Positions 11,988-64,000 of a stretch of DNA of 64,000 nt are shown here, in pieces. The notes beneath the pieces were generated by a model, which was not told where the DNA came from, searched no databases, and was given only the letters and a program-made list of their open reading frames with translations. This stretch comes from an uncultured Erysipelotrichaceae bacterium (GTDB taxonomy: Bacteria > Bacillota_I > Bacilli_A > Erysipelotrichales > Erysipelotrichaceae). The position numbers were made by a program, and so were the translations under genes. Position 1 is the first letter of the stretch. Each line of letters begins with the position of its first letter. Location of the stretch: NCBI GenBank assembly GCA_964613305.1, contig CAZTII010000001.1, forward strand, positions 11,990 to 75,989, given 5' to 3'.

Positions 11988-12013
11988 TTGGCATTATTAA
12001 TGATGGAGAGAAT

Positions 12014-19816: not shown

Positions 19817-19821
19817 GGTAA

Positions 19822-20013
19822 AGAAGATGGTAGGTGAGGCTACTATAAGGATATGGGTTGCTGCCGCAAAATAGTGGAGACACTATGCGCTGGTATGAAT
19901 AGTCTACATTGTACGAAGGTGTAGAATAAAGCAATTTCACCGCCTTATAGAGCTAAAGCTCAAACGTCGTGTAGTTGGACTAGTTGAACTTGCCATTTTA
20001 GCAAGTTTTTTTT
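19822..20013 (+). promoter_or_regulatory. M-box (ykoK-type) Mg2+ riboswitch with intrinsic terminator
   Basis: GGTAGGTGAGGCT, TTGCTGCCGCAAAATAGTGGAGACAC and GAGCTAAAGCTCAAACG match the conserved M-box blocks of B. subtilis ykoK. Terminator GAACTTGC/GCAAGTT plus T8 at 19986-20013. Directly upstream of mgtA. Confidence 0.85.
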
Positions 20014-20116
20014 GATGGGAGGGATTGTTTTGGATAGTATACCGCAACAGAAATACAATAAATAAAGTAAAGATACTTTTTTGTGTGTCTTTACTATAAT
20101 GAAGGAGGTAGAGACG

Positions 20117-22804
20117 ATGAAAAAGAGAAATAATTTTCACCACGTTTATGAACATTCTGATTTAATTTCTATGGCTGAATTTGCTCAGATGGATATGAAT
20201 TTAGTGTATGAGTTTACCCACTCAAAATCTACAGGTTTAAGTAGCGAACAAGTAGAAATAAACTTAGAACAGTTTGGCTCAAATGAAATTACGGAAATGA
20301 AAGAAGATTCTGTCTTTGTTCAGTTTTTAAAAACATTTTTGGACCCATTTTCAATTATTTTAATTTTATTAGCAATTGTATCATATATAACAGATGTTAT
20401 ATTAGTAAGTGGAGAAGATAAAAATCCTATTACTGTTTTTGTTATTTTAATTTTAGTGTTTATAAGTAGTTCCATACGATTTGTACAAGAAAGAAAAAGT
20501 TCTTTAGCTATGACTCAACTTCTTGATCAAGTGGCACTTACCATCGGTGTTTTACGTGATGGTAATGAGATTGAAGTGTCTTTTGATGAAGTAGTTGTTG
20601 GTGACATTATTGTTCTTTCAGCAGGGGATATGCTTCCTGCCGATTGTCGAGTGATTAGTGCAAAGGATTTGTTTGTGTCTCAATCATCATTGACTGGAGA
20701 AAGTGATTCTATTGAAAAAATGGAAAAAATTAGTTCCAGAAAAAAAGATAGTATTATGGATTATGAAAATCTTGTATTTATGGGTAGTGATGTTGTTAGT
20801 GGTGCTGCCTTAGCAATCGTATTAAAAGTTGGTAACCATACAACATTAGGAGAAGTTGCATCAAAATTAACTGAGAAACCAAGTGCTACAAGCTTTGATC
20901 GTAGTGTTAATTCGATTTCAACGCTATTAATTCGTTTTATGTTAGTGATGGTTCCAGTTGTATTTTTTATTAATGGCTTTAGTAAAAAGAATTGGTTGGA
21001 TGCATTTTTGTTTTCGGTGAGTATTGCGGTTGGATTAACACCAGAAATGTTACCAATGATTGTAACGAGTTGTTTAGCTAAAGGTGCTATTGCGATGTCT
21101 AATAAAAAGACGGTTATTAAACAACTTCAGGCAATTCAAAATTTTGGAGCGATGGATATTTTATGTACTGATAAAACAGGAACACTAACACGTGATGAAG
21201 TAATTTTGGAGCATCATTTGAATTTAGACGATGTAGAAGATGATAAGGTGTTATCGTTTGGTTATTTAAATTCATTTCATCAAACAGGTCTTAAAAATTT
21301 AATGGACAAATCGATTATTAAACGTTGTGAATCGATTGTATTTAACGATGAACCGATGAAAAATAATATTATTTCATACAATAAGGTAGATGAAATTCCT
21401 TTTGATTTTGGTAGAAAAAGAATGAGTGTTGTTGTTGAAAACAAGGATAACAATTATTTGATTTGTAAAGGTGCAGTCGAGGAAATGTTATCGCTTTGCA
21501 TTAGTAAAGAAAAAGATAATGTTGTCTCTGAGTTGACTAGTGATGATATCGCATTAGTGAGTAAGCAAGTGGAAGCTTGGAATTTAGAAGGTTTTCGTGT
21601 TATTGCGGTAGCATATAAAAAATGCAAGAAAAATCAACGTATTTTTTCATTAGATGATGAAAAAGACTTAGTATTATTAGGCTATCTTACTTTCTTAGAC
21701 CCACCGAAGGAAAGCGCTGAAGAAGCTATCCGTGCCCTTCATAAACAAGGAATTGATGTTAAGGTATTAACTGGTGATAATGACGCTGTAACACGTGCTA
21801 TATGCGCTAAAGTTGGTATTGCCACGGAACCAATTTGTTTAGGTGTTGATGTTGAAAAGATGACCGATGAAGAATTGTATCAAGTTGCCTTTAAAACACC
21901 AATTTTCGCGAAATTATCGCCGGCTCAAAAAGCACGTATTATTCGTATTTTAAAAGATAGTAATCACACTGTTGGTTATATGGGTGATGGTATTAATGAT
22001 GCCTTAGCACTAAAAGAATCAGATATTGGTATTAGTGTTGATACGGCAGTTGATATTTCTAAAGAAGCAGCGGATATGATTTTATTAGAAAAAGATTTAA
22101 TGGTATTAAAAGATGGAATTATTGAAGGTAGAATAACATGTGTTAACATGATTAAATACTTAAAAATGACCATTAGTAGTAATTTTGGTAACATGTTTAG
22201 TGTTGTTGTAGCTAGTTTATTTTTACCATTTTTACCAATGATTCCAGTACAGCTTATCGTGTTAAATGTTACGTATGATTTAAGTTGTACGGCTATTCCT
22301 TGGGATTTAGTTGATGAGGAATTAATTGACCATCCAACTAAATGGGATAGTGATAGCATAAAGAAGTTCATGGTTTCTATTGGACCGATATCAAGTATTT
22401 TTGATTGTTTAATGTTTGCGATTTTGTACTTTATTTTAATTCCTAAATTGTGTGGTGGAAGTTATTCGACATTATCACCTGCAGCACAACTACAATTTAG
22501 TTCACTATTTCAAACAGGATGGTTTATTGCTTCCATGTGGACTCAATCGTTGGTCATTCACTTTATTCGTACCCAACACATTCCTTTTGTTCAATCAAGA
22601 CCAGCAAAAGTGTTATTTTTTGCCAGTATTTTAAGTATTATTTTTGTTACTAGCTTACCATATACACCTTTAGCGACGTCACTTCATCTTCAACCACTAC
22701 CATTGGAATATTTCTTTTACTTAATTGCTGTTGTAAGTGGTTATATGATGACAATGTTGGTTGCAAAAAAACAATTTATGAAGAAAAATGGTATTTGGAT
22801 TTAA
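20117..22804 (+). CDS. mgtA: Mg2+-importing P-type ATPase
   Basis: TGES, DKTGTLT, TGDN and GDGINDALAL are all present. Start at MKKRNNF (ATG 20117) behind GAAGGAGGT; the track start 20081 is less likely. Confidence 0.88.
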   Translation: MKKRNNFHHVYEHSDLISMAEFAQMDMNLVYEFTHSKSTGLSSEQVEINLEQFGSNEITEMKEDSVFVQFLKTFLDPFSIILILLAIVSYITDVILVSGEDKNPITVFVILILVFISSSIRFVQERKSSLAMTQLLDQVALTIGVLRDGNEIEVSFDEVVVGDIIVLSAGDMLPADCRVISAKDLFVSQSSLTGESDSIEKMEKISSRKKDSIMDYENLVFMGSDVVSGAALAIVLKVGNHTTLGEVASKLTEKPSATSFDRSVNSISTLLIRFMLVMVPVVFFINGFSKKNWLDAFLFSVSIAVGLTPEMLPMIVTSCLAKGAIAMSNKKTVIKQLQAIQNFGAMDILCTDKTGTLTRDEVILEHHLNLDDVEDDKVLSFGYLNSFHQTGLKNLMDKSIIKRCESIVFNDEPMKNNIISYNKVDEIPFDFGRKRMSVVVENKDNNYLICKGAVEEMLSLCISKEKDNVVSELTSDDIALVSKQVEAWNLEGFRVIAVAYKKCKKNQRIFSLDDEKDLVLLGYLTFLDPPKESAEEAIRALHKQGIDVKVLTGDNDAVTRAICAKVGIATEPICLGVDVEKMTDEELYQVAFKTPIFAKLSPAQKARIIRILKDSNHTVGYMGDGINDALALKESDIGISVDTAVDISKEAADMILLEKDLMVLKDGIIEGRITCVNMIKYLKMTISSNFGNMFSVVVASLFLPFLPMIPVQLIVLNVTYDLSCTAIPWDLVDEELIDHPTKWDSDSIKKFMVSIGPISSIFDCLMFAILYFILIPKLCGGSYSTLSPAAQLQFSSLFQTGWFIASMWTQSLVIHFIRTQHIPFVQSRPAKVLFFASILSIIFVTSLPYTPLATSLHLQPLPLEYFFYLIAVVSGYMMTMLVAKKQFMKKNGIWI

Positions 22805-26970: not shown

Positions 26971-26984
26971 TTAATAAACTAAAG

Positions 26985-27237
26985 ATTGAGAGATAAAACA
27001 AATTAGTCGCTTAAAGAGAGTTGGGGTAGGTGGAAGCCCAATAGAGATGACGGTTTGACAAGTGGACTCATGAGGGCAGGGTGAAAAAGTAATTGAGTAG
27101 CCTATGACGTATGGTGGCGTTAACATCAGAAAATGTGATGGCATTTTTGATTGAGTGGGTAATGAAAATTACCAATAAAGGTGGTACCGCAGGTGAATAT
27201 ACACTTGTCCTTTTGGGGGATGAGTGTTTTTTTATTC
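26985..27237 (+). promoter_or_regulatory. T-box riboswitch leader (probable AUG/Met specifier) with terminator
   Basis: AG bulge AGAGAG (27015-27020). Distal hairpin TTGGG-GTAGGTGGAAG-CCCAA. GAGTAG and the F-box-like GGCGTTA. T-box core AAAGGTGGTACCGCAG (27177-27192). Terminator ACACTTGTCC/GGATGAGTGT plus T7 (27201-27237). Confidence 0.85.
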
Positions 27238-27268
27238 CTTAATCAAAAACCATAGAAAGAGGAGAGTT

Positions 27269-28234
27269 ATGAAAAGACTATTAATCGGGTTATGCGCAGT
27301 TTTAATGCTAAGTGGTTGTGGAAGTAAGGAGAGTAGTGTGGCAAAGATTGGTGTTATCCAATTAGTTGAGCACACGTCATTAAATGAGATTTACGATAGT
27401 TTTTCAAAAGAGTTAGTTGCTTTAGGATATGAAGATGGAAAAAATGTAGTAGTTGATTTTAAAAATTGCCAAGGTGAATTATCAAATTTACCATCAATCG
27501 TTCAAAACTTTGAAGCGGATAAAAAAGATGTCGTTGTGGCTATTACAACTCCAGTTGCTCAAGGGGCAATGGCATTAGCTAAAAATACACCAGTTGTATT
27601 TTCTGCTGTAACTGATCCTGTTGCGGCGAAGATTGTTACTGATTTATCGGTTACAGATAAAAATATTACAGGAACTAGTGATGCGGTTTCTGTTGAACAA
27701 ATTATTGAACTAGCAATGACTCTAGTTCCAAGTGCTAAAAAAGTTGGATTTATTTATAATCCGTCAGAAGCAAATTCAGTATCTAACTATGAAAAATTAC
27801 TTGTTGTTGCTAAAGATAAACAACTTGAAGTGGAAGCAGTATCCATCGCTTCATCAACAGAACTACAAACTGCGGCAAGTGTATTGTGTACAAAAGTCGA
27901 TATGATTTTTGTTTCTAATGATAATACTGTTGCGGAAGGTATGCCAATTTTAGCAAAAGTTGCCAATGAGGCAAAAATTCCAGTATTTACTGGTGCTGAT
28001 TCTATGGTTAAAGATGGTGGTTTAGCGACAGTAGGTATCGATTATTCTGAATTAGGTAAGAAGACAGCACAAATGGTTGTTGAAATATTAAAAGGTAAAA
28101 AAGTTAGTGAACTACCAGTTGTTGTATTTAAGGATAATTTATTTATTACCATTAATGAAACTACAGCTGCAGCAATTGGTTTAGCAATTCCAGAAGAAGT
28201 TTTAAAAAATCCTAAGTGTATTTTGGTGAAATAG
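27269..28234 (+). CDS. ABC transporter substrate-binding lipoprotein (ABC_sub_bind / COG2984-type)
   Basis: MKRLLIGLCAVLMLSGCGS lipobox, behind GAAAGAGGAGAG. IGVIQLVEHTSLNE and the overall layout fit the uncharacterised PF04392-type binding proteins (family from memory). Confidence 0.75.
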   Translation: MKRLLIGLCAVLMLSGCGSKESSVAKIGVIQLVEHTSLNEIYDSFSKELVALGYEDGKNVVVDFKNCQGELSNLPSIVQNFEADKKDVVVAITTPVAQGAMALAKNTPVVFSAVTDPVAAKIVTDLSVTDKNITGTSDAVSVEQIIELAMTLVPSAKKVGFIYNPSEANSVSNYEKLLVVAKDKQLEVEAVSIASSTELQTAASVLCTKVDMIFVSNDNTVAEGMPILAKVANEAKIPVFTGADSMVKDGGLATVGIDYSELGKKTAQMVVEILKGKKVSELPVVVFKDNLFITINETTAAAIGLAIPEEVLKNPKCILVK

Positions 28235-40539: not shown

Positions 40540-40728
40540 ATGGCAAGAAAAGCAGAAGTAGAAAAGAAAGTATGTGTAGCATGTGGAGAATGTTTTATAA
40601 CATGTCCAAAGAAAGTAATTAACATCCAAGATGGATGTTTTGCGCAAATTGATAGAGACAAATGTGTTGGTTGTGGTATATGTGAGAAAGTGTGTCCAGC
40701 TGGTGCGATTACAATGGTGGTGGTATAA
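40540..40728 (+). CDS. 2x[4Fe-4S] ferredoxin
   Basis: CVACGECFITCP and CVGCGICEKVCP. ATG 40540 behind GGGAGGA. Confidence 0.85.
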   Translation: MARKAEVEKKVCVACGECFITCPKKVINIQDGCFAQIDRDKCVGCGICEKVCPAGAITMVVV

Positions 40729-41306
40729 TGAAAAAGAATAAACAATGGAAAGATTATTTATGGATTGTAAGTAGTATATATTTGATTTTAGGGCTATTTA
40801 ATATTTTATTCGCATGGTTAGGATTGTTTTGTTTTTTTATTCCTTTATTAGTATCAATTTTTGGTAAAGGAAAAGCGTACTGTAATAGTTATTGTGGTCG
40901 TGGTCAATTGATGAAAAAAATAGGGAAAGATTTAAAATGGTCTAGAAATAAACGTTTACCAGAAATCATTAGAACACGTTGGTTTCGATTGGCGTTTTTA
41001 ACGTTTTTTATGATAATGTTTGGTTTAATGATTTTCTCGACAGTGAAAGTATTTCAAGGTTCTTCACTAAAACAAGTAGTTACTTTATTATGGTCATTTA
41101 AAGTTCCTTGGCATTTCGCTTATCATAATAATAGTCAACCTTGGATTGCTCAATTTGCCTTTGGTTTTTATAGTGTTATGTTAACATCGAGTGTATTAGG
41201 TTTAATCACCACTATTTTCTATCAACCACGCTCATGGTGTGTTTATTGTCCAATGGGGACAATGACCCAATTATTAAGTGAAGCAAGAGTAAAAATTAAA
41301 GAATAA
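40728..41306 (+). CDS. Cys-motif polytopic membrane protein (NapH/NosR-like 4Fe-4S binding family)
   Basis: Four or so TM helices with YCNSYCGRGQL and SWCVYCPMGT motifs. Its start overlaps the ferredoxin stop (TAATG). Confidence 0.6.
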   Translation: MKKNKQWKDYLWIVSSIYLILGLFNILFAWLGLFCFFIPLLVSIFGKGKAYCNSYCGRGQLMKKIGKDLKWSRNKRLPEIIRTRWFRLAFLTFFMIMFGLMIFSTVKVFQGSSLKQVVTLLWSFKVPWHFAYHNNSQPWIAQFAFGFYSVMLTSSVLGLITTIFYQPRSWCVYCPMGTMTQLLSEARVKIKE

Positions 41307-41318
41307 AGAGGAAAGTTT

Positions 41319-41528
41319 ATGGAAAAAATTAGAGTGAAAGCAACAGGAATGAGTTGTTCTCATTGTGAAAATCGCGTTAAAAAGAGTTTGCTACAATTGG
41401 ATGGTGTGGTTCAATGTAGTGTGAATGCCAAAACAGGAATGGTTGAATGTGATGTAGAAAATAATAAAGTTACATTGAAACAAGTTGAAGAGGGCATTGA
41501 AGATTGTGGATTTGAGGTTGTTCGATGA
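41319..41528 (+). CDS. copZ: Copper chaperone (HMA domain)
   Basis: [13 protein letters not shown], the MxCxxC motif in a 69-aa ferredoxin-like fold. Confidence 0.88.
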
Positions 41529-43726
41529 AAAAAGAAGTGCTTAAAATTAAAGGGATGACATGTGCAGCGTGTTCCTCTTCTTTAACAAAAGCACTTTGTA
41601 AGATAGATGGGGTACAAGCGGAAGTTTATCTTGCGAGCGAAAAGGCATCTGTACAATTTGACGAGGAAAAAGCATCACTTGATGATATTAAAAAAGTTGT
41701 AGAAAAAGTAGGGTTTTTTGTGGTAGATGAAACAGAAGATGAAAAACAACTTCATGAACATTTGATACGACAACAAAAAAAGAAAAGTTTGTGGACAATG
41801 ATCATTACAATACCATTGTTTATTATTGCGATGGCACCAATGATTAAAGGAGTGCCATTTCCGTCGTTTCTTATGCCAAATGAAAACCCTATACGGTATT
41901 CTTTAGTTCAGTTATTGTTAACGATACCAGTAATGATTATTGGTCGTGACTTTTATACAAAAGGCTTTGCTAATTTATGGCGTAAATCACCGAACATGGA
42001 TAGTTTAGTTGCATTAGGAACAAGTGCTGCATTTTTAGTGAGCGTCTATCATACATATTTAATTATTGTAGGTGATGGTAGTTATGTTCATCATTTGTAT
42101 TATGAAAGTACCGCAGTTATTATTACTTTAATCTTGTATGGCAAAACATTGGAATTAAATAGTCGAAATAAAACAAATCAAGCTATTATGAAGTTGATGA
42201 ATTTATCGGCGAAAACGGCTAGAATTCTTCGAAATGGTGAAGAAGTAGAAGTACTAGTTGAAGAATTACTTGTTGGTGATACTATTGTTGTTCGACCAGG
42301 AGAAATAATCCCGGTGGATGGTGTTATTATACAAGGAACAACGAGTGTGGATGAAAGTATGTTAACGGGTGAAAGTCTTCCTGTTGATAGAACAAAAGGT
42401 GATGCTGTAATTGGAGCTACTGTAAACTGTAATGGTTTTGTACAAATATCAGCGAGTAAAGTTGGGAAAGATACGATGTTATCTAAAATTATTGAAATGG
42501 TATCAGAAGCCCAAAATTCAAAAGCGCCTATTGCTAAGTTAGCTGATGAAGTAGCTTCAGTATTTGTACCAATTGTGATAGTTATTGCTTTAGTAGCGTT
42601 TTTAGGATGGATGATTGTCGGTAAAAATTTTGAATTTTCACTTAAAATATTAATTTCAGTATTAGTTATTGCTTGTCCATGTGCTTTAGGTTTAGCGACA
42701 CCGACAGCGTTAATCGTTGGAACCGGTCAAGCTGCATTAAAAGGAATCTTATTTCGTAATGCAGAAGCATTAGAAACATTAGGTAAAATCACAACGGTTG
42801 TTTTTGATAAAACTGGTACAGTTACCGAAGGAAAGCCAAAAGTAACAGATGTTTTAATAGTAGATAATGAAATTGATGAAAATATACTTTGGACATATAT
42901 CACTTCTTTAGAAAATTATAGTGAACATCCTTTATCTAAAGCAATTATTGAAGAAGGAAAGAGACGTAATGTTGAAATAAGACAAGTTGATGATTTTAAA
43001 TCAATAACAGGATTTGGTATTTCTGGAATTATAGATGGCAATATTTTAAAAATTGGTAATCAACGATTTACTGAAAGTGATATTGATGCCAGTGATTTAT
43101 CGAATCAAGGAAAAACAGCGTTGTATGTTAGTGTTAATGATAAGGTTGTAGCTTTACTTGGTGTTGCTGATACGATAAAAAGTGATAGTAAAGAGGTAAT
43201 GAAGCAATTACATCAAATGGGAATTAAAACTATCTTATTGACTGGAGATCAACAGAGGACAGCACGAGCGATTGCGAATCAGATACATATTGATGAAGTA
43301 ATCTCGGAAGTGATGCCGAATGAAAAAGCGGATGTTATTAAACGGCTTGTTGAAAGTGGTGAAAAGGTTGCGATGGTTGGTGATGGTATTAATGATGCGA
43401 TTGCCCTTGTTAGTGCTAGTGTTGGCGTTGCAATGGGAAGTGGAAGTGATATAGCGATTGAAAGTGCTGATGTTGTGTTAATGAATCAATCGCTACAAAC
43501 ATTCATCACGGCACTTCATTGGAGTGTTGCTACACTTCGATGTATAAAACAAAATCTATTTTGGGCATTTTTCTATAATATCCTTGGAATTCCAGTTGCT
43601 TGTGGTATTTTATATATTTTTAATGGACCATTATTGAATCCAATGTTAGCGGCACTTGCGATGAGTTTTTCTAGCGTTACCGTTGTAGGAAATGCATTAC
43701 GTTTAAACACAATTAAGGTAAAGTAA
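41525..43726 (+). CDS. copA: Copper-translocating P1B-type ATPase
   Basis: N-terminal [20 protein letters not shown] ([11 protein letters not shown]), [30 protein letters not shown] overlap with copZ. Confidence 0.92.
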
Positions 43727-45959: not shown

Positions 45960-46037
45960 TGGGGCGATCGACGGGACTTGAACCCGCGAGTGCTGGAGCC
46001 ACAATCCAGTGTGTTGACCAACTTCACCACGACCGCC
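45960..46037 (-). tRNA. tRNA-His (GTG anticodon), CCA encoded, with G-1
   Basis: Minus strand: G-GCGGTCG...CTGGA-TTGTGGC-TCCAG...GCGGG-TTCAAGT-CCCGT-CGATCGC-C-CCA. The cloverleaf folds by hand, and the extra 5' G plus C73 are His hallmarks. Confidence 0.9.
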
Positions 46038-57267: not shown

Positions 57268-57298
57268 AAAAAAAGGATGCGAAATTTTGCATCCTTTC
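57268..57298. terminator. Bidirectional terminator
   Basis: AAAGGATGC GAAATTTT GCATCCTTT flanked by A and T runs, between convergent genes. Confidence 0.75.
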
Positions 57299-57818
57299 AA
57301 TTTAGAGCAAGTGTACCTATCGTATCGGGAGTAGTACTTGATTTAAATGATAAAACTGTAACTTTACTTTCAAGTACGTTATACGTATAGCCTTTACCAA
57401 CTTTACAGCTATTGTTATCATTAACCCCGTTATCGCATAATGTGATAGTGTAATCTGAAAGTCCTCCTTGAGCATTTGTTACATAATTTATAATGACGTT
57501 ATTTAATAAATCACCTATTTTATAATCCATCGTTTTATCAATGGTATTAAATTCTTTTATAAATTTGTCAGATTCTCCACTATCTAAGGAAGCTTGTGCA
57601 CTACTATATAGTAAATTTATGTTATCACCAACCATATCAAGTTTATCGAGGGTAATATCTGTAACCATTCTGATTTGTTTAAGATTTCTAAGAGCTACAG
57701 TTTCTTTCGCTTTAGCGGTGTAGCCAATAATACTTGGAACTATGATTAGGGCTAGCACAGCTAAAATAGAAATGACGATGATTAATTCTACTAAGGTAAA
57801 TCCTAATTTTTTTCTCAT
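57297..57818 (-). CDS. Type IV pilin / ComGC-like pseudopilin (prepilin N-terminal methylation domain)
   Basis: MRKKLG|FTLVELIIVISILAVLALIIVPS is a class III signal peptide with the E+5 residue. A C-terminal Cys pair (LCDNGVNDNNSC) resembles the pilin D-region. Confidence 0.82.
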   Translation of the reverse strand: MRKKLGFTLVELIIVISILAVLALIIVPSIIGYTAKAKETVALRNLKQIRMVTDITLDKLDMVGDNINLLYSSAQASLDSGESDKFIKEFNTIDKTMDYKIGDLLNNVIINYVTNAQGGLSDYTITLCDNGVNDNNSCKVGKGYTYNVLESKVTVLSFKSSTTPDTIGTLALN

Positions 57819-57838: not shown

Positions 57839-59212
57839 CTATATGTGCAATAAGAAATGAGCAATATTGAAGTAGACGATAAGGGAAATAGCATCTACAA
57901 TTGTTGTGATAAATGGTGCTGACATTACTGCAGGGTCAAAACCAATTTTCTTAGAGATAAGTGGTAAAGTACCTCCTACAAGTTTTGCAACGATGACAGT
58001 AATTAACAATGTTAAGTTTACAGTTAATGAAACGATAAGCGATACTTTATCAAAGAAGAGTAATTTGAAGAAGTTGGCAATAGCAAGCGTAATACCGCAT
58101 ACAATGGCAACTTGGAATTCTTTGAAAATAACTTTAAAGATATCACTATATTCAATCTCTCCTAATGATAACCCACGAATTAGTGTAACAGAGGCTTGTG
58201 AGCCACTATTTCCACCAGTATCCATCAACATTGGAATATAAGCTACAAGCACTACTTGCGTTGCGAGAGCATTTTCAAATTTAGATATAATTAAACCAGT
58301 AAAGGTAGCTGAAACCATTAAAAATAGTAACCATGGAATTCTGGCTTTCCAAATTTCAAAAACATTCATTTTAAGATATTCTTTGTCACTTGAAATAACA
58401 GCTCCCATTTTTTCAATGTCTTCAGCGTGTTCTTCTTTTATGACTTCAATAGCGTCATCTACAGTGATGATACCGACTAGGCGACTTTCTAAATCGACTA
58501 CTGGTAGTGCCATAAAACCGTATTTACTAAATACTTCTGCGACTATTTCTTGATCATCGGTAGTTTGGACAGAGATAACATTCTCTTCCATGATATCTTC
58601 TATTTTATCCTTATAATCAGCTAATAACAAGTCCTTGACAGAACAAAGACCAATTAATTTTCTTTTTTCATCGATAACATAACAAGTATATACGGTTTCT
58701 TTGTGTAGTCCAATGCGTCTAATTCGTTTAAAGGCATCCTCAACTGTCATATTCTTTTTGAAATCAATATATTCAATTGTCATAATGCTTCCAGCACTGT
58801 TCTCAGGGTAATTTAAGAGCTGATTAATAATAACTCTTGTTTCAGCACTGACATTTTTAAGAATGCGTTTTACGACGAATGCTGGCATTTCTTCAATGAT
58901 ATCAACAGTGTCATCTAAATATAAATCATTGATAACATCACGTAACTCAGTATCGTTAAAACCATTAATTAAACTCTCTTGCATTTCAAAACTCATTTCA
59001 ACAAAGGTATCTGATGCCATATCTTTAGGAAGGATTCTAAACAGAAACATCAATTCTTCGTGATTAATAGATTTATTATCCCATAATTCTTCAAATGCTT
59101 CAGCGATATCTGTCGCATTTTTATTTGCTAAACAATCATGTAATTCTTTTCTTTTTTTATTTTTTAAATAGGTACATATTAACTCTTCAAGTTGATGTAG
59201 TTCTTCAGCCAT
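57839..59212 (-). CDS. mgtE: Magnesium transporter MgtE
   Basis: N-domain, tandem CBS domains, and a C-terminal 5-TM domain with PMLMDTGGNSGSQ. ATG 59212 behind GGAGGTTAACC. Confidence 0.9.
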   Translation of the reverse strand: MAEELHQLEELICTYLKNKKRKELHDCLANKNATDIAEAFEELWDNKSINHEELMFLFRILPKDMASDTFVEMSFEMQESLINGFNDTELRDVINDLYLDDTVDIIEEMPAFVVKRILKNVSAETRVIINQLLNYPENSAGSIMTIEYIDFKKNMTVEDAFKRIRRIGLHKETVYTCYVIDEKRKLIGLCSVKDLLLADYKDKIEDIMEENVISVQTTDDQEIVAEVFSKYGFMALPVVDLESRLVGIITVDDAIEVIKEEHAEDIEKMGAVISSDKEYLKMNVFEIWKARIPWLLFLMVSATFTGLIISKFENALATQVVLVAYIPMLMDTGGNSGSQASVTLIRGLSLGEIEYSDIFKVIFKEFQVAIVCGITLAIANFFKLLFFDKVSLIVSLTVNLTLLITVIVAKLVGGTLPLISKKIGFDPAVMSAPFITTIVDAISLIVYFNIAHFLLHI

Positions 59213-59248
59213 GGTTAACCTCCTATAATGTGAATTCCTCACTTTTAA

Positions 59249-59257
59249 ATTATACCA
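59249..59257 (-). promoter_or_regulatory. Extended -10 promoter element of mgtE
   Basis: Minus strand TGGTATAAT, about 36 nt upstream of the mgtE ATG. There is no good -35. Confidence 0.45.
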
Positions 59258-59430
59258 TAAATATTTTTTTAAAAATAGGTCTATTATTATCTATACAATG
59301 AGGTATTATATAGATGTAAAAAGAAACATACGAGGTGATTCAAATGAAAAAGGTGTTACTAGAATATCTACACTAGTCTATATGGAAGGGCAGAATTTCA
59401 TATAGACGGCAAAAAAAATAATATGAAAGT

Positions 59431-59472
59431 GAAAGTCTGCATGAGGGCATACCAATGGACAATGAAAGTATA
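59431..59472 (+). repeat. Motif copy 1 (GAAAG-N5-ATG...ATACCAATGGACAATGAAAGTATA)
   Basis: GAAAGTCTGCATGAGGGCATACCAATGGACAATGAAAGTATA. The last 24 nt are identical to copy 2. Confidence 0.8.
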
Positions 59473-59538
59473 GGGATTCAATAAACTAATCATTAAAGCA
59501 AATGATAAATGCAATGACGATTGATTAGTTAAAGTGAC

Positions 59539-59555
59539 GTATGTTGAGAAATATA
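59539..59555 (+). repeat. 17-nt box, copy 1
   Basis: GTATGTTGAGAAATATA is identical to 59727-59743. It is itself related to the GTATGTTTAGGATATA core of the main motif. Confidence 0.75.
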
Positions 59556-59598
59556 TAGTGTTAAATGGTAGTCATAAGAATGTCGAATATAGTGAATG

Positions 59599-59640
59599 GA
59601 AAGGTATGTTTAGGATATACCAATGGACAATGAAAGTATA
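59599..59640 (+). repeat. Motif copy 2
   Basis: GAAAGGTATGTTTAGGATATACCAATGGACAATGAAAGTATA. Confidence 0.85.
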
Positions 59641-59726
59641 ATATATCAATAAAAGCTAATCATTTAGGCAAATAACAACAAAATAAGTATTATAAATGTG
59701 ATTAGTTTGATAGTTATTATGGTAGT

Positions 59727-59743
59727 GTATGTTGAGAAATATA
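59727..59743 (+). repeat. 17-nt box, copy 2
   Basis: GTATGTTGAGAAATATA. Confidence 0.75.
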
Positions 59744-59790
59744 CGACGTTGATTATAAGGTTTGAGTTTTAATCAATAAATAATTGAATG

Positions 59791-59817
59791 GAAAGGTATG
59801 TTTAGGATATACCAATG
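59791..59817 (+). repeat. Motif copy 3 (5' part only)
   Basis: GAAAGGTATGTTTAGGATATACCAATG is identical to copy 2 over 27 nt (plus the shared upstream GAATG), then diverges. Confidence 0.85.
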
Positions 59818-59876
59818 AATAGTTTATAAAGCAGTGATGTTTAAAGGTCAGTGAAGTAAATCAAAACTAAGTAGCA

Positions 59877-59903
59877 GAAAGGCATGTTAAGGATACACCA
59901 ATA
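59877..59903 (+). repeat. Motif copy 4 (diverged, 5' part only)
   Basis: GAAAGGCATGTTAAGGATACACCAATA has 4 substitutions relative to copy 3. Confidence 0.7.
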
Positions 59904-60133
59904 GATGGTACATGAAGTATTAGTTGTTAACTATAATTAATAGTATACATGGTTAATAAATAATTTAATGGTATAAAGTAGCTATACTAGTGTAGATTGA
60001 GTATTAATCGAATAATGAATGTATTGAATTATGTAAGTATCGAAATAAGTAGTTATCTTAACAAAAGTATCAAGTTATTTAATAATTGATTAAAAAAGTG
60101 TTAAAACAACACAAAAGAAGCTGGCTTACTAAG

Positions 60134-60209
60134 AAAATTTAAAAAAGGCCTCTAACATATCATCGATTCACAATAGCTAAGTGAAGATGGTGATATGGAA
60201 GAGGTCTTT
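60134..60209 (-). terminator. Long imperfect hairpin plus U-run, terminator of the degenerate ATPase gene
   Basis: Minus strand: AAAGACCTCT...(inner CATATCA/TGATATG pairing)...AGAGGCCTTTTTT. The plus-strand reading is also hairpin + TTTT. Confidence 0.6.
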
Positions 60210-60210
60210 T

Positions 60211-62451
60211 CTATGACTGTTGAATGTATGAAATAGAGCATCCTAAACTTTCAAATAAGTTTTTAATTTTGTTTATTTCATAGATCGATGATGTTTCTAC
60301 AAGTATTGTCGTATCATCAATAAATGATACATGAAATCCATCGATTGATATGGTTTTATTTAATCTATCTTTTAGATGAATCGTATAAAAATAGCGCTTA
60401 GTATTAATATTTTTTAAAGGTAATACTGACTTCCATAATAAAAGATATGATAATAATGAAATAGACATGATGAGTAGTGGCGAAAAGTTAATAAAAGGAA
60501 GAATAGAAATAATGATTAAGCATACTTGAGTGTATAATGTTCTTTTTTTTATTTGTATCATTTCTTGTTGAAATTGTTCTGTTAATGAAAAACATGAAGT
60601 TAGAAATGAAATGTCATTGTTTAAAACAAATAGTGGTGCTTTTTTTGGTAAAAATGATGGTCCACAATTTAAAACTATCGTATGTTGATTATCAATGAAA
60701 CCTTGGTTGATAAATAACATTTTTTTATGATTGTTTTCACAATATTCAATCATTTTAATTTCTTTGGTTAATGTCATATCGAATTCAATAAAGTCCATGT
60801 TACATGGTTTTAAGTAACGCTTTGCTTTTTCATCGTTATTTACTAGACAAGCACATATTTCTTTTTGATGCTTTTTTAGCGTTGATATCGTTGCTTTTAC
60901 GGTAGGTAAGATAGTTTCTTCGATAGCTATAATCCCTAAAACCTCCATGTTATTTAACACTAAGCGACACATTTTTCCTTCTGAATGATATGATGATATT
61001 GTATTTTGAACAGTATATGGCAGAGTATTATTATCAATATCGTCGCTATTAACTATCGTGGATGATTGAAAATAAGTTGCTTCTTTTTTAAATAAGTTTT
61101 TAAAGCTATCATTATTGACTTGTTGAAAAGCGGTTTCTTTTAAATATTGCATTACCGCAAGAGATGTAGGAGTTTTGGATTTACTTTCTAGGGTGTGCAA
61201 CAAGACAGAAAATTCGTTTAAATCCATCTGACTTGAAATCATTACATCGCTAACACGCGGTGTTTTATCGCATAAAACGTTGTCTTTATAAAAGGCAAAG
61301 ATATCTGTATCTTTAAGTTGTAATACTTGATTAAAACTATCAAAGAATATCATTTGTTGATTAGCTCGATGGGATAAGAAGGTACTAATTAGTTCTTTAG
61401 CGAAAAGGTAGAGATCACCAACATAAGCGACTAGAAAGCTAATGATGGTAATCGCGGCGCTTGATATATTTTTTGTTACTATATAATTTAGTAGTCCAAT
61501 AAAAATGGAAGAAACGCCATATAATAATGGAATTCTATTTAATAAAGTTTCCTCGGTAGTTACTGTTGTTGATAAAAAAGTTGAGTCGATATGCTGTTGT
61601 AATTGATGATAGAATGACTCATCATATTTTTTATCAACTCTAATTTCAATTGGTGCGTGTAAATTAGTGGAAAGAGCGAATACTTGGCTGTTTACAGATG
61701 CCTGTTGTGGATATTTATTTCCAAGTAAGAACAATGTATCGATAAAAGTAAATCCTTTTGTAATTGTTCCATCTAGTGGAATTATACAGTTTTTATCGAT
61801 TAAAATGATATCGCCGACATTAATTGTTGAAATATCGACGTCAATAGAAGTGTGGTTTTTAACTAATTTACATTTTTTTGGTTGTTTTAAATTATACCGA
61901 TAGTGTATTAACGATATTTTCTGTTTGAATAATGTGAATATATAGCTTTTACATGTACTTAAATGGATAATAATAATTGGATGAAAAAATAAATGATGTT
62001 GATTAATATTGATTGCTAAACTTAGGAAAATACTTATAAATAGTAGTGTTTCACTAGTGAATTTTTTAAATTGCAGTTGGTCAATAAGAATATCTTTCAT
62101 AAAATAGATATTGGTAAAGAATAGTAAGAGTTGTATTAAGTTTACTATTAGTGTAGGTAATTGTAAAAATGAGATGCTTGTAATGGTAATCAATGACATT
62201 AAACCGATTAATAACTGTCGTTTTAGTGATAATGATTGTTTATTTGAGTTGAAATTAAAACATTTATACGATGATACTAAAATGGTTAGTGATGATAGTG
62301 ATAAAACACGTTCATCAAATTCAACTAGAAATGTAAAAGTGCATTGTTGGTACTCACAACGTAGAACACCAGGGATAGAATGTATGGTTGCAAGCAGTTT
62401 TTCAGCATTTATCGGATTTAAAGGATGATTACAAGGAAATTTATAACGCAT
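60211..62451 (-). CDS. CopA-like P1B-ATPase homolog lacking all catalytic motifs (predicted pseudo-ATPase membrane protein)
   Basis: Intact 746-aa ORF behind GGAGTGAT. It aligns by eye to the window's own CopA through the actuator, P and N domains, but TGES, CPC, DKTGT, HP, TGD and GDGxNDxP are all replaced (details in findings). Confidence 0.75.
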   Translation of the reverse strand: MRYKFPCNHPLNPINAEKLLATIHSIPGVLRCEYQQCTFTFLVEFDERVLSLSSLTILVSSYKCFNFNSNKQSLSLKRQLLIGLMSLITITSISFLQLPTLIVNLIQLLLFFTNIYFMKDILIDQLQFKKFTSETLLFISIFLSLAININQHHLFFHPIIIIHLSTCKSYIFTLFKQKISLIHYRYNLKQPKKCKLVKNHTSIDVDISTINVGDIILIDKNCIIPLDGTITKGFTFIDTLFLLGNKYPQQASVNSQVFALSTNLHAPIEIRVDKKYDESFYHQLQQHIDSTFLSTTVTTEETLLNRIPLLYGVSSIFIGLLNYIVTKNISSAAITIISFLVAYVGDLYLFAKELISTFLSHRANQQMIFFDSFNQVLQLKDTDIFAFYKDNVLCDKTPRVSDVMISSQMDLNEFSVLLHTLESKSKTPTSLAVMQYLKETAFQQVNNDSFKNLFKKEATYFQSSTIVNSDDIDNNTLPYTVQNTISSYHSEGKMCRLVLNNMEVLGIIAIEETILPTVKATISTLKKHQKEICACLVNNDEKAKRYLKPCNMDFIEFDMTLTKEIKMIEYCENNHKKMLFINQGFIDNQHTIVLNCGPSFLPKKAPLFVLNNDISFLTSCFSLTEQFQQEMIQIKKRTLYTQVCLIIISILPFINFSPLLIMSISLLSYLLLWKSVLPLKNINTKRYFYTIHLKDRLNKTISIDGFHVSFIDDTTILVETSSIYEINKIKNLFESLGCSISYIQQS

Positions 62452-62566
62452 TTAATCACTCCAATCTAAACGTTTAATCTTAGAATAATCTTAACTTTTG
62501 AAAGTGTCAATCTAAAGACTATGAAAATTGACTAAAAAAGATTAAAATAGATAGTGAGGTGAAACT

Positions 62567-64000
62567 ATGAATACAAAGGAAAAATTAAAAAAATTAAGAA
62601 AATTAATGAGTAATAAAAATATTGACGCTGTCATTATTCCTTCTGCAGATTATCATCAAAGTGAGTATGTCGCTCAGTTTTTTCAATCAAGAGCGTATAT
62701 TTCCGGATTTGATGGTTCTGCCGGAACAGTAGTGATTACTCAAAAGGAAGCCGGCTGTTGGACTGATGGCAGATATTTTGTTCAAGCTGAAAAACAATTA
62801 AAAGGAAGTGGAATTGATTTATATCGAATGGGTGAAGAAAACACATTAACGATTCAAGAATTTATTATAAAATACATTCCTAAAAAGGGTTGTTTTGCTT
62901 TTGATGCACGTGTTATTAGTGGAAAACAATATGATGATTATGTTTCTTGTTGTTCTAAAAAGGAAATATCTATTGTCGATATTGATTTGATGAGTGAACT
63001 ATGGGACGATCGTCCTGCTTTTCCAAATGGTCAATTATTTACTTTAGGAAAAGAGTTTTCTGGTAAAAAAGTTAAAGATAAAATTAAGGATATTGTCGTA
63101 TTGATGAAAGAAAATAGTGCGACTGTGTGTCTTCTTAGCAAGTTAGAAGATATTGCGTGGTTATTAAATGTTCGAGGTCAAGATGTAGAATGTACTCCAG
63201 TATTTTATAGCTATTGCATGATTAAAGATAAAAAAGTACGTTTATACGTTGATGAAACTAAAATTAATACTGAAGTATCAAAATCATTGAAAGAAGATAA
63301 TGTTGAAATAGCACCATATGAGTGTTTTGTGGATGATGTAAAACAATTAACGAAGGAAACAATTTGGATTGATAAAGCAGTGTTAAATGCACAAATAGTT
63401 CGTGCAATCGACGAATCTAATCAAGTAATTGATAAGGACAGTCCATGCATGCTTCCACGTGCCATTAAAAATAAAGTTGAAATTAAGAACATGAAAGAAG
63501 CCCATGTTGTAGATGGTGTGGCATTGACGCGTTTTATTTATTGGTTAAAAACAACGATTGGTAAAGAAGTAATTAATGAATACCAAGCTGGAGAAGTGTT
63601 AGAACAATATCGTCGTCAACAACCTAATTTTATAGAACCTAGTTTTCATACTATTTTTGCGTATGGTAGTAATGCGGCAATGATGCATTATCGTGCGTTA
63701 AAAAATAATAATAGTGAACTCAAAACAGAAGGTTTGGTATTAATTGATTCAGGCGGTCAATACAAAGGTGGAACAACCGATGTTACGCGAACAATTGTAT
63801 GTGGGAAAATTGATGATATGACGAAGAAGTATTATACCCGTACTTTACAAGGTATGATACGCTTATCGAAAGTTAAGTTTTTATATGGGTGTACTGGCCA
63901 AGTTCTCGATGTGTTATCAAGATCACCTCTATGGGATATTGAAATGGATTATAAATGTGGTACCGGGCATGGGGTTGGTTTTTGTTTAAGTGTTCATGAA
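62567..64000 (+). CDS. Xaa-Pro aminopeptidase (M24B, aminopeptidase P family); C-terminus beyond the window edge
   Basis: My own translation from ATG 62567 (SD GTGAGGTGA) gives MNTKEKLKKLRKLMSNKNIDAVIIPSADYHQSEY.... Creatinase-like N-domains are followed by the pita-bread core DSGGQYKGGTTDVTRT and GTGHGVG. The frame is open to 64000. Confidence 0.82.
   Translation, partial: MNTKEKLKKLRKLMSNKNIDAVIIPSADYHQSEYVAQFFQSRAYISGFDGSAGTVVITQKEAGCWTDGRYFVQAEKQLKGSGIDLYRMGEENTLTIQEFIIKYIPKKGCFAFDARVISGKQYDDYVSCCSKKEISIVDIDLMSELWDDRPAFPNGQLFTLGKEFSGKKVKDKIKDIVVLMKENSATVCLLSKLEDIAWLLNVRGQDVECTPVFYSYCMIKDKKVRLYVDETKINTEVSKSLKEDNVEIAPYECFVDDVKQLTKETIWIDKAVLNAQIVRAIDESNQVIDKDSPCMLPRAIKNKVEIKNMKEAHVVDGVALTRFIYWLKTTIGKEVINEYQAGEVLEQYRRQQPNFIEPSFHTIFAYGSNAAMMHYRALKNNNSELKTEGLVLIDSGGQYKGGTTDVTRTIVCGKIDDMTKKYYTRTLQGMIRLSKVKFLYGCTGQVLDVLSRSPLWDIEMDYKCGTGHGVGFCLSVHE

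Follow-up and report, generated by a model that had tools for sequence, protein, structure and literature searches.

The window analysed here is the whole stretch of 64,000 nucleotides from position 11,990 to 75,989 of contig CAZTII010000001.1 (assembly GCA_964613305.1), from an uncultured Erysipelotrichaceae bacterium. Near one end it carries a complete gene for a homolog of the P1B (CopA-type) P-type ATPases. The encoded protein has the predicted fold of these metal pumps and, as judged from alignments, none of their catalytic or metal-binding motifs; we refer to it as the dead pump. Table 1 lists the gene, its domains, and the other features of the window.

The open reading frame (ORF) is intact, as a sequence-only reading of the window had described. 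It has no in-frame stops. The two remaining minus-strand frames contain 66 and 76, and when the gene is shuffled by mononucleotide the mean is 57 stops and the minimum 36. The same reading had noted a good Shine-Dalgarno sequence, and a GGAG is indeed present 7 nt before the start codon. The best sigma-70-like match of the region lies slightly further upstream, though this is a consensus match only and the count of such matches is not above chance. At the other end of the gene, a long hairpin, whose base has an A-tract and a U-tract, starts from the stop codon and is likely a terminator. Because of the promoter-like site, the Shine-Dalgarno sequence, and this hairpin, the dead-pump gene looks like its own transcription unit.

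Table 1. The dead-pump gene, the predicted domains of its protein, and other features of the window
Feature	Coordinates	Strand	Remarks
Dead P1B-ATPase homolog ORF	60211..62451	-	complete, 746 aa + stop, ATG start
Sigma-70-like match TTGACA-17-TATTCT	62482..62510	-	10/12 consensus; ~30 nt 5' of ATG
Shine-Dalgarno GGAG	62459..62462	-	7 nt 5' of ATG
N-terminal HMA-like domain	62254..62451	-	residues 1-66; beta-alpha-beta-beta-alpha-beta; without CxxC
MA, MB, M1, M2 membrane helices	61891..62247	-	residues 69-187
Actuator (A) domain	61567..61890	-	residues 188-295; PxDG kept, TGES replaced by LGNK
M3-M4	61357..61557	-	residues 299-365; CPC replaced by YVG
P and N domains	60616..61356	-	residues 366-612; five motifs replaced or lost
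M5-M6	60409..60609	-	residues 615-681; YN and MxxSS replaced
C-terminal alpha+beta domain	60214..60396	-	residues 686-746; beta-loop-beta-beta-alpha-beta
Long hairpin from stop codon, likely terminator	60140..60213	-	-25.7 kcal/mol, z=-4.2
pepP (Xaa-Pro aminopeptidase, M24)	62567..64000	+	divergent; intergenic gap 115 bp; cut by window end
Spacer with direct repeats	59243..60139		dead-pump gene to mgtE
mgtE	57839..59242		
Prepilin-type N-terminal cleavage/methylation signal ORF	57297..57818	-	173 aa; TIGR02532 26.9 bits vs cutoff 16.3; just downstream of mgtE
tRNA gene	45963..46036	-	
Genuine copA	41525..43726		
Multi-pass membrane ORF	40692..41306	+	204 aa; Cys motifs CNSYCGRG, CVYCPMG; 220 bp 5' of genuine copA
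T-box leader	26973..27215	+	94 bits, just over gathering score; 5' of ORF 27224-28234
MgtA-type magnesium P-type ATPase	20081..22804	+	907 aa; TIGR01524, 1040 bits
M-box (Mg2+) riboswitch	19819..19975	+	90 bits; directly 5' of MgtA-type gene

Fold and lost motifs of the dead pump

The dead pump is homologous to the genuine CopA encoded in the same window, as had been proposed: BLASTP aligns the two over 485 amino acids with 20% identity (E=1e-16). Pfam E1-E2_ATPase scores 62.5 bits (E=4.7e-17; gathering score 28.1), and the heavy-metal P-type ATPase model TIGR01525 reaches E=2e-32 but with 112.8 bits, far under its cutoff of 346.25. Two further curated cutoffs are missed as well (TIGR01511, 75.8 vs 397; TIGR01494, 34.7 vs 62.3). 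An AlphaFold2 model built from a 61-sequence alignment (predicted local distance difference test, pLDDT, 83.2; predicted template-modelling score, pTM, 0.76) contains eight long helices in the P1B pattern, with four before the A domain, two between it and the P and N domains, and two after these. The predicted domain order is that of P1B pumps (metal-binding domain, MA/MB, M1-M2, A, M3-M4, P/N, M5-M6). In a Foldseek search of the Protein Data Bank the top match to this model was ATP7B (7xuk, E=2e-32); CopA, ZntA, CadA, and KdpB also matched, and the template-modelling score to Archaeoglobus CopA (7r0g) was 0.75 normalised to the target. Profiles and structural comparison together confirm P1B ancestry.

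The two ends of the protein are less easily assigned. The N-terminal domain aligns with the HMA profile at an hhalign E of 2.7e-4 (probability 41%), and Pfam reports only HMA_2 (E=0.0097). At the other end, the extra alpha/beta domain that the sequence-only reading had pointed out is present in the model at residues 686-746, but it is specific to this lineage, being absent from all relatives found. It aligns with the HMA profile in register and weakly (hhalign E=0.016, probability 2.8%), and helix 1 of the HMA-type fold is a loop here. Pfam gave no significant match to it, HMA included, and the best Foldseek matches were generic alpha+beta domains (best E 0.028), with one HMA domain at rank 26. 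Neither the hhalign nor the Foldseek matches reach significance; the domain is possibly a degenerate HMA or ferredoxin-like fold.

We checked the motif replacements in MAFFT alignments against live ATPases. The dephosphorylation loop of the A domain, TGES, has become LGNK (residues 243-246) with only the glycine kept, while the PxDG of the same domain is retained (P225, D227, G228). DKTGT is replaced by YKDNV (residues 388-392), which puts Tyr388 at the position of the phosphorylated aspartate. In the N domain SEHP is now SKTP (residues 425-428), so that the histidine of the nucleotide pocket is lost, and both glycines of GxG are gone. The Mg2+-site motif GDGxNDxP, as GDGINDA, is NQGFIDN (residues 582-588). 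Among the metal ligands, CPC at the M4 site has become YVG (within AYVGD, residues 342-346), YN of M5 is YT (within LYTQ), MxxSS of M6 is MSISLLS, and the GMxCxxC of the N-terminal HMA-like domain corresponds to HPLNPIN (residues 9-15). The losses of TGES, the catalytic aspartate, SEHP, GDGINDA, CPC, and the N-terminal CxxC had all been called from the letters, and the alignments bear them out. The TGD hinge motif is a partial exception. It is lost, as claimed, but VNND occurs at both residues 445-448 and 537-540, and TGD aligns with L536-V537-N538, next to the second of these copies. As aligned, the dead pump lacks the residues needed to become phosphorylated or dephosphorylated, to bind ATP in the canonical way, or to coordinate metal, and we infer that it would have no pump activity.

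A family of motif-less homologs

Relatives of the dead pump were difficult to find by indexed methods. A word-indexed protein search returned only the identical protein, followed by a gap to live ATPases at ~20% identity. Likewise, a profile search of a 5.8-billion-protein database, in which candidates are chosen by shared words, returned live ATPases only. When 1.84 billion cluster representatives were searched exhaustively with phmmer, the window protein itself was the sole match at E<1e-30. The next two matches, P0025 (5.7e-24) and P0026 (6.1e-22), are both without every motif and ranked over ~2,600 live ATPases. Among the best 150 matches were 11 more 50%-identity clusters of the same dead clade, making 13 besides the window protein's own.

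The main group of these motif-less homologs, here labelled DF1, consists of eleven 50%-identity clusters of 695-721 amino acids. Its members do match the HMA profile PF00403. DF1 proteins carry DQDGxLT in place of DKTGT, LFTDGT in place of TGD, AYISG in place of GDGxND, and VLACxSL in place of CPC, and the SEHP region is replaced by LEYIAYALESRS..PFAKAITRYLRTRK. The DKTGT site is itself variable within the family, with D or E at the first position and D, N, or K at the third. In many DF1 members the site reads D-x-D-G-[VT] (e.g. IMDQDGVLT in P0026 and VMDQNGTLT in P0029), which resembles motif I of soluble HAD phosphatases, DxDx[TV]. P0036 represents a further dead lineage, named at NCBI as HAD-IC family P-type ATPase [Erysipelotrichaceae bacterium]. 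It has glutamate at the nucleophile position and lacks M6, the protein stopping after M5.

Searching with the DF1 member P0039 gave graded relatives from 86% to 39% identity, 706-730 amino acids long where complete, one of them named as from Solobacterium. The window protein is 17-24% identical to the other dead homologs. All complete copies of the family that we recovered are intact ORFs of 695-730 amino acids. In one Erysipelotrichaceae metagenome-assembled genome (MAG), a P0036-type gene next to pepP (MCF0108676.1) is annotated in two pieces, MCF0108677.1 and MCF0108678.1, of 119 and 502 amino acids (partial); the ten other members of that cluster are full length. Either that lineage has a frameshift here or the assembly is at fault.

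We assigned the family to Erysipelotrichaceae by the names of its relatives and of its PepP neighbours; contig searches with the dead protein and with PepP found no close relative. PepP clusters from the family loci are named Erysipelotrichaceae bacterium, and the sample and contig names of these loci indicate animal gut and rumen. So far, the dead-pump family has been found only in Erysipelotrichaceae.

Gene order ties the lineages together. At the window locus (L001) pepP lies divergently upstream of the dead-pump gene, across their shared intergenic gap, and after pepP come genes for an EEP (exo/endonuclease-phosphatase-family) protein, an M20 peptidase, a HAD hydrolase, and a CBS protein. 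The same pepP block lies beside DF1 genes at L019, L022, L023, and L025 and at eight metagenome loci (L026-L028, L030-L034), and the P0036 lineage also has pepP (L021, L020). The family's PepP neighbour is an M24 aminopeptidase P of ~600 amino acids. Fourteen of the fifteen loci with a readable upstream flank have the two genes head-to-head (the window locus L001, L019, L021-L023, L025-L028, and L030-L034). Positional orthologs of the dead-pump gene therefore exist, and the conserved neighbour is pepP; mgtE and the repeat spacer on the other side of the window gene, which had been suggested alongside it, are not conserved.

In a neighbour-joining (NJ) tree of 61 sequences over 645 well-occupied columns, the window protein, the P0036 lineage, and DF1 form a single clade in 100/100 bootstraps, with the window protein sister to the P0036 lineage (92/100). 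Four partly degenerate ATPases, P0085 (EKTGT/TGNK), P0126, P0087, and P0055, were considered as intermediates and rejected, all falling outside this clade. P0085 belongs to an ArsR/CopZ metal-resistance locus (L055 67-5166, Logan SRR22388025), where its gene (EKTGT, TGNK, SPC, GDGITDS) sits beside those for an ArsR-type regulator, a second P1B ATPase, and a CopZ-like protein. Of the others, P0126 has EKSGV, and P0087 has DLNGT with CPC kept. Motif erosion in P1B ATPases may be commoner than assumed. Outgroup pepP loci (L004-L018) have no adjacent P-type ATPase, and the live ancestor was not located there.

A retained non-catalytic role and its alternatives

Two comparisons within the family measure selection directly. 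Between the DF1 genes of L022 and L023, nonsynonymous divergence (dN) is 0.186 and synonymous divergence (dS) 0.98, for a ratio (omega) of 0.19; four neighbouring genes give 0.06-0.13. In the P0036 lineage, L020 and L021 give an omega of 0.058 with dS 0.021. Neither ratio is near 1, and the estimates indicate that constraint on the family is real, yet weaker than on neighbouring housekeeping genes. For the window gene itself, three independent metagenome assemblies encode a 100% identical protein. One of these differs at 3 nucleotides, all third-position and synonymous. Random changes in this gene would be silent in ~21% of cases and introduce a stop in 5.8%, so that three synonymous variants have P ~0.009 if they are independent. 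Frameshifted orthologs, an omega near 1, and profiles without relation to P-type ATPases were all sought, and none was found; the one possible exception is the split annotation described above.

Our favoured reading, to which we give a probability of roughly 0.65, is that the dead pump is a membrane-anchored, non-catalytic pseudo-pump acting through its cytosolic headpiece. Its parts differ in strength. That the window gene belongs to a selected non-catalytic family is highly probable. We would give about even odds to a single, ancient conversion of the P-type ATPase chassis in Erysipelotrichaceae into an ATP-independent, membrane-tethered platform for binding or signalling, made of the HMA-like, A, and N domains. 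The specific headpiece-scaffold mechanism is tentative. The favoured reading as a whole starts from a full-length membrane protein of P1B fold, with an HMA-like domain, eight helices, and A, P, and N domains, in which aspartyl-phosphate formation, dephosphorylation, ATP binding in the canonical pocket, and metal binding in the membrane and at the N-terminus would all have been lost. The family appears to stem from one ancient inactivation, after which it has stayed under purifying selection, usually head-to-head with pepP. The membrane helices would serve mainly as an anchor, and the headpiece (HMA-like, A, and N domains), as the most constrained part, probably acts as a scaffold or regulator by binding a partner protein or a small ligand.

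Several points weigh against this reading. The inactivity of the protein is deduced from its sequence. The dS of the DF1 comparison (0.98) is near saturation, two of the 3 synonymous variants in the window gene are 3 nt apart and perhaps dependent, and with the next relative only 24% identical, the case for selection on this particular gene consists of ORF integrity and these three variants. Of the window's genes it also has the most drifted composition. Glycine, alanine, and valine make up 2.0%, 2.7%, and 4.7% of the protein, vs 6.7, 8.0, and 10.1% in the same genome's CopA; among the window's genes it is second-lowest in both GC content at the first codon position (0.345) and purine content at that position (0.553), and its coding-strand GC skew (-0.21) is the most negative. 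Such drift argues for weak constraint. One MAG annotates a P0036-type gene in pieces of 119 and 502 amino acids. The profile search of 5.8 billion sequences missed the family, so its taxonomic breadth is under-sampled. The adjacency to pepP is lost at the Solobacterium locus (L024), which has ApbE and rnf genes upstream and retains the downstream NUDIX and amylase genes typical of DF1. The NJ clade, obtained by a distance method with long branches, may be inflated by long-branch attraction, although synteny independently backs the grouping. Finally, nothing about function can be read from the neighbouring genes beyond the speculative point that pepP, the EEP protein, the M20 peptidase, the HAD hydrolase, and an Amidase_3 enzyme come from families of metal-dependent hydrolases.

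The distribution of conservation along the protein bears on what it might do. We compared mean pairwise identity by domain in 31 DF1 sequences and 31 random live CPC-type ATPases, whose overall values are alike (0.40 and 0.42). DF1 is the more conserved in the HMA (0.48 vs 0.34), A (0.55 vs 0.45), and N domains (0.49 vs 0.33), and close to the live pumps in P1 (0.49 vs 0.47). It is the less conserved in MA-M2 (0.19 vs 0.34), M3-M4 (0.38 vs 0.53), P2 (0.36 vs 0.47), and M5-M6 (0.35 vs 0.52). The ion path and the Mg/phosphate site of DF1 are freed from constraint, and the HMA-like, A, and N domains are held tighter than in functioning pumps. The flanks of the former TGES loop are conserved (LTGxxxPVEK), with the catalytic Glu-Ser positions free.

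This pattern is a difficulty for an ATP-independent transporter or channel, in which the eight-helix domain would be a passive pore, facilitator, or ion sensor and the dead headpiece a gate. In the window protein all eight helices of the membrane domain are confidently predicted. M5 of DF1 keeps an invariant histidine and proline (YH...LP), and all 11 aligned DF1 sequences have the proline that is P652 in the window protein. The membrane segments are nevertheless among the least conserved parts of the family (0.19-0.38, vs 0.34-0.53 in live pumps), and the alignment contains no polar intramembrane residue common to the window protein, P0036, and DF1; the DF1 histidine is threonine in the window protein and glutamine in P0036. 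With the CPC, YN, and MxxSS ligands all lost, and M6 itself missing from the P0036 lineage, we consider a channel unlikely. The sequence-only reading had proposed a retained non-enzymatic role (scaffold, sensor, or channel-like) in place of decay. Intact orthologs and omega values of 0.19 and 0.06 uphold the retained role, and the conservation pattern tells against its channel-like version.

A cryptic enzyme, with migrated or re-invented catalytic residues, is less probable again. It might be a membrane-bound phosphatase or a non-canonical ATPase, and the candidate residues would be the DQDG[VT] of DF1: several members have D-x-D-G-[VT] at the DKTGT site and keep the threonine of motif II (LFTDGT). 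Pseudoenzymes with migrated residues are known generally (PMC10211241). The nucleophile site is not conserved, however, varying within the family as noted above and being tyrosine in the window protein and glutamate in P0036. The Mg2+ aspartates of GDGxND are lost in all lineages. The TGES glutamate, the ATP-pocket histidine, and GxG are lost too. We rejected the HAD-phosphatase-like DxDG as a family-wide feature, since its position varies and the Mg2+ site is gone, and we read the likeness to HAD phosphatase motif I as probably coincidental.

If motifs had instead been lost independently and convergently, the window protein would not be orthologous to the other dead proteins. Its 17-24% identity to DF1 and P0036 and its unique C-terminal domain would fit such a history, and a hidden Markov model (HMM) of 40 live ATPases scores slightly higher on it (195 bits) than one of 11 DF1 sequences (175 bits). 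The HMM comparison does not discriminate between the two origins, and orthology is therefore settled by synteny and the tree. The divergent pepP-EEP-M20-HAD-CBS neighbourhood of the window is the same as at the DF1 locus L019. Its PepP shares 42-44% identity with the PepP proteins found beside the other dead genes, proportionate to a faster-evolving dead gene: inside DF1, PepP identities of 84, 71, and 62% accompany dead-protein identities of 75, 44, and 30%, which is the same proportion. The top two of ~2,600 phmmer matches are members of the dead family, the NJ clade leaves the other partly degenerate ATPases outside, and the lineages share derived residues, including G[FY] following the PxDG strand and, in the N domain, Y[LF][KR]. 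Convergence is very improbable on these grounds, and the window gene is its lineage's ortholog of the dead-pump family.

The least credible alternative, already in large part refuted, is a decaying pseudogene or neutral ORF, i.e. a duplicated copA recently inactivated and still open by chance: a composition drifted to mutational bias (very low Gly/Ala/Val, weak position-1 purine bias, odd GC skew) and the absence of a close relative among 15 billion proteins would suit it, but ~20% identity to any live pump implies ancient divergence, the 746 codons have nonetheless stayed open with 66 and 76 stops in the off-frames and 5.8% of random point mutations creating one, many species have intact positional orthologs that are under purifying selection, every population variant is synonymous, and the model folds confidently.

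Of known families, the P1B-1 pumps (CopA, ATP7A/B; 7r0g, 3rfu, 7xuk; TIGR01525/TIGR01511; TC 3.A.3.5) are nearest to the dead pump, with its fold and domain order (Foldseek E=2e-32 to 8e-31). The window protein differs from them in the absence of DKTGT, TGES, TGD, GDGxND, SEHP/GxG, CPC, YN, MxxSS, and CxxC and in its extra C-terminal domain, and the dead family differs in its inverted domain-conservation profile. As a candidate functional P1B pump, the window protein fails every motif tested and the curated cutoffs. The nearest documented conceptual analogue is TMEM94/ERMA, whose cytosolic part has A-, P-, and N-like domains and whose membrane domain is P-type-like. According to one structural study, it lacks TGES and has no detectable ATPase activity or Mg2+ binding and no Post-Albers cycle (PMC12134183). 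Its status is contested, as a 2026 paper defines it as an endoplasmic reticulum Mg2+ ATPase (PMC13322241). TMEM94/ERMA is eukaryotic, has 10 helices, is unrelated to the P1B subgroup, and keeps a candidate phosphorylation aspartate (D417), whereas the bacterial family has lost the phosphorylation aspartate itself in several lineages. Other pseudoenzymes of membrane machines, such as the iRhom and Derlin dead rhomboids, are also enzyme folds kept under selection after catalytic loss and reused for binding or scaffolding; the dead-pump family differs from them in fold and biology. Pseudoenzymes in general are reviewed in PMC10211241.

Full-text literature searches, whose coverage excludes subscription journals, and the review PMC10654040 yielded no bacterial pseudo or dead P-type ATPase. 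We found no published description of the bacterial dead-pump family, which is in that sense previously undescribed. If the single, ancient conversion to which we gave even odds is true, the family would be the first in bacteria to have turned a P-type ATPase into a pseudo-pump.

Few membrane enzymes are understood as well as the P-type ATPases, whose defining motifs are usually taken as invariant. A whole fold kept under selection after loss of its catalytic and metal residues would represent a second, non-pumping use of the scaffold, and the family would allow one to study, in a natural setting, what A, N, and HMA domains are capable of once the Post-Albers cycle is gone. The inverted domain-conservation profile could serve as a simple, transferable signature for other pseudo-transporters. 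There is a practical consequence too. Family members appear in databases as HAD-IC family P-type ATPase or Cu+-exporting ATPase, names that imply an activity for which the sequences give no basis. With such names, metal resistance would be over-predicted for the Erysipelotrichaceae of gut and rumen.

Other features of the window

The spacer of ~900 bp between the dead-pump gene and mgtE contains several direct repeats with a spacing of 168-192 nt, for instance a 33-nt unit with identical copies at 59593 and 59785 and a 73% copy at 59871. Neither an Rfam match nor an ORF is present in the spacer. All three metagenome contigs with the dead-pump gene end 423 bp past its stop (near 59788), and because they end inside the repeats, the repeat region appears to break assemblies. 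Unusually long non-coding stretches (0.5-1.6 kb) also lie just downstream of the dead-pump gene, before NUDIX, at L019 (10089-11680), L026 (8119-9478), L031 (8104-9040), L032 (8131-9088), and L022 (10134-10683). Rfam scans of these downstream spacers at gathering thresholds found nothing, and PADLOC defence models had no match.

In all, the window holds three P-type ATPase homologs (the MgtA-type protein, CopA, and the dead pump) in addition to MgtE. The multi-pass membrane ORF with several cysteine motifs upstream of the genuine copA has no NCBIfam match and might encode a copper-related accessory protein.

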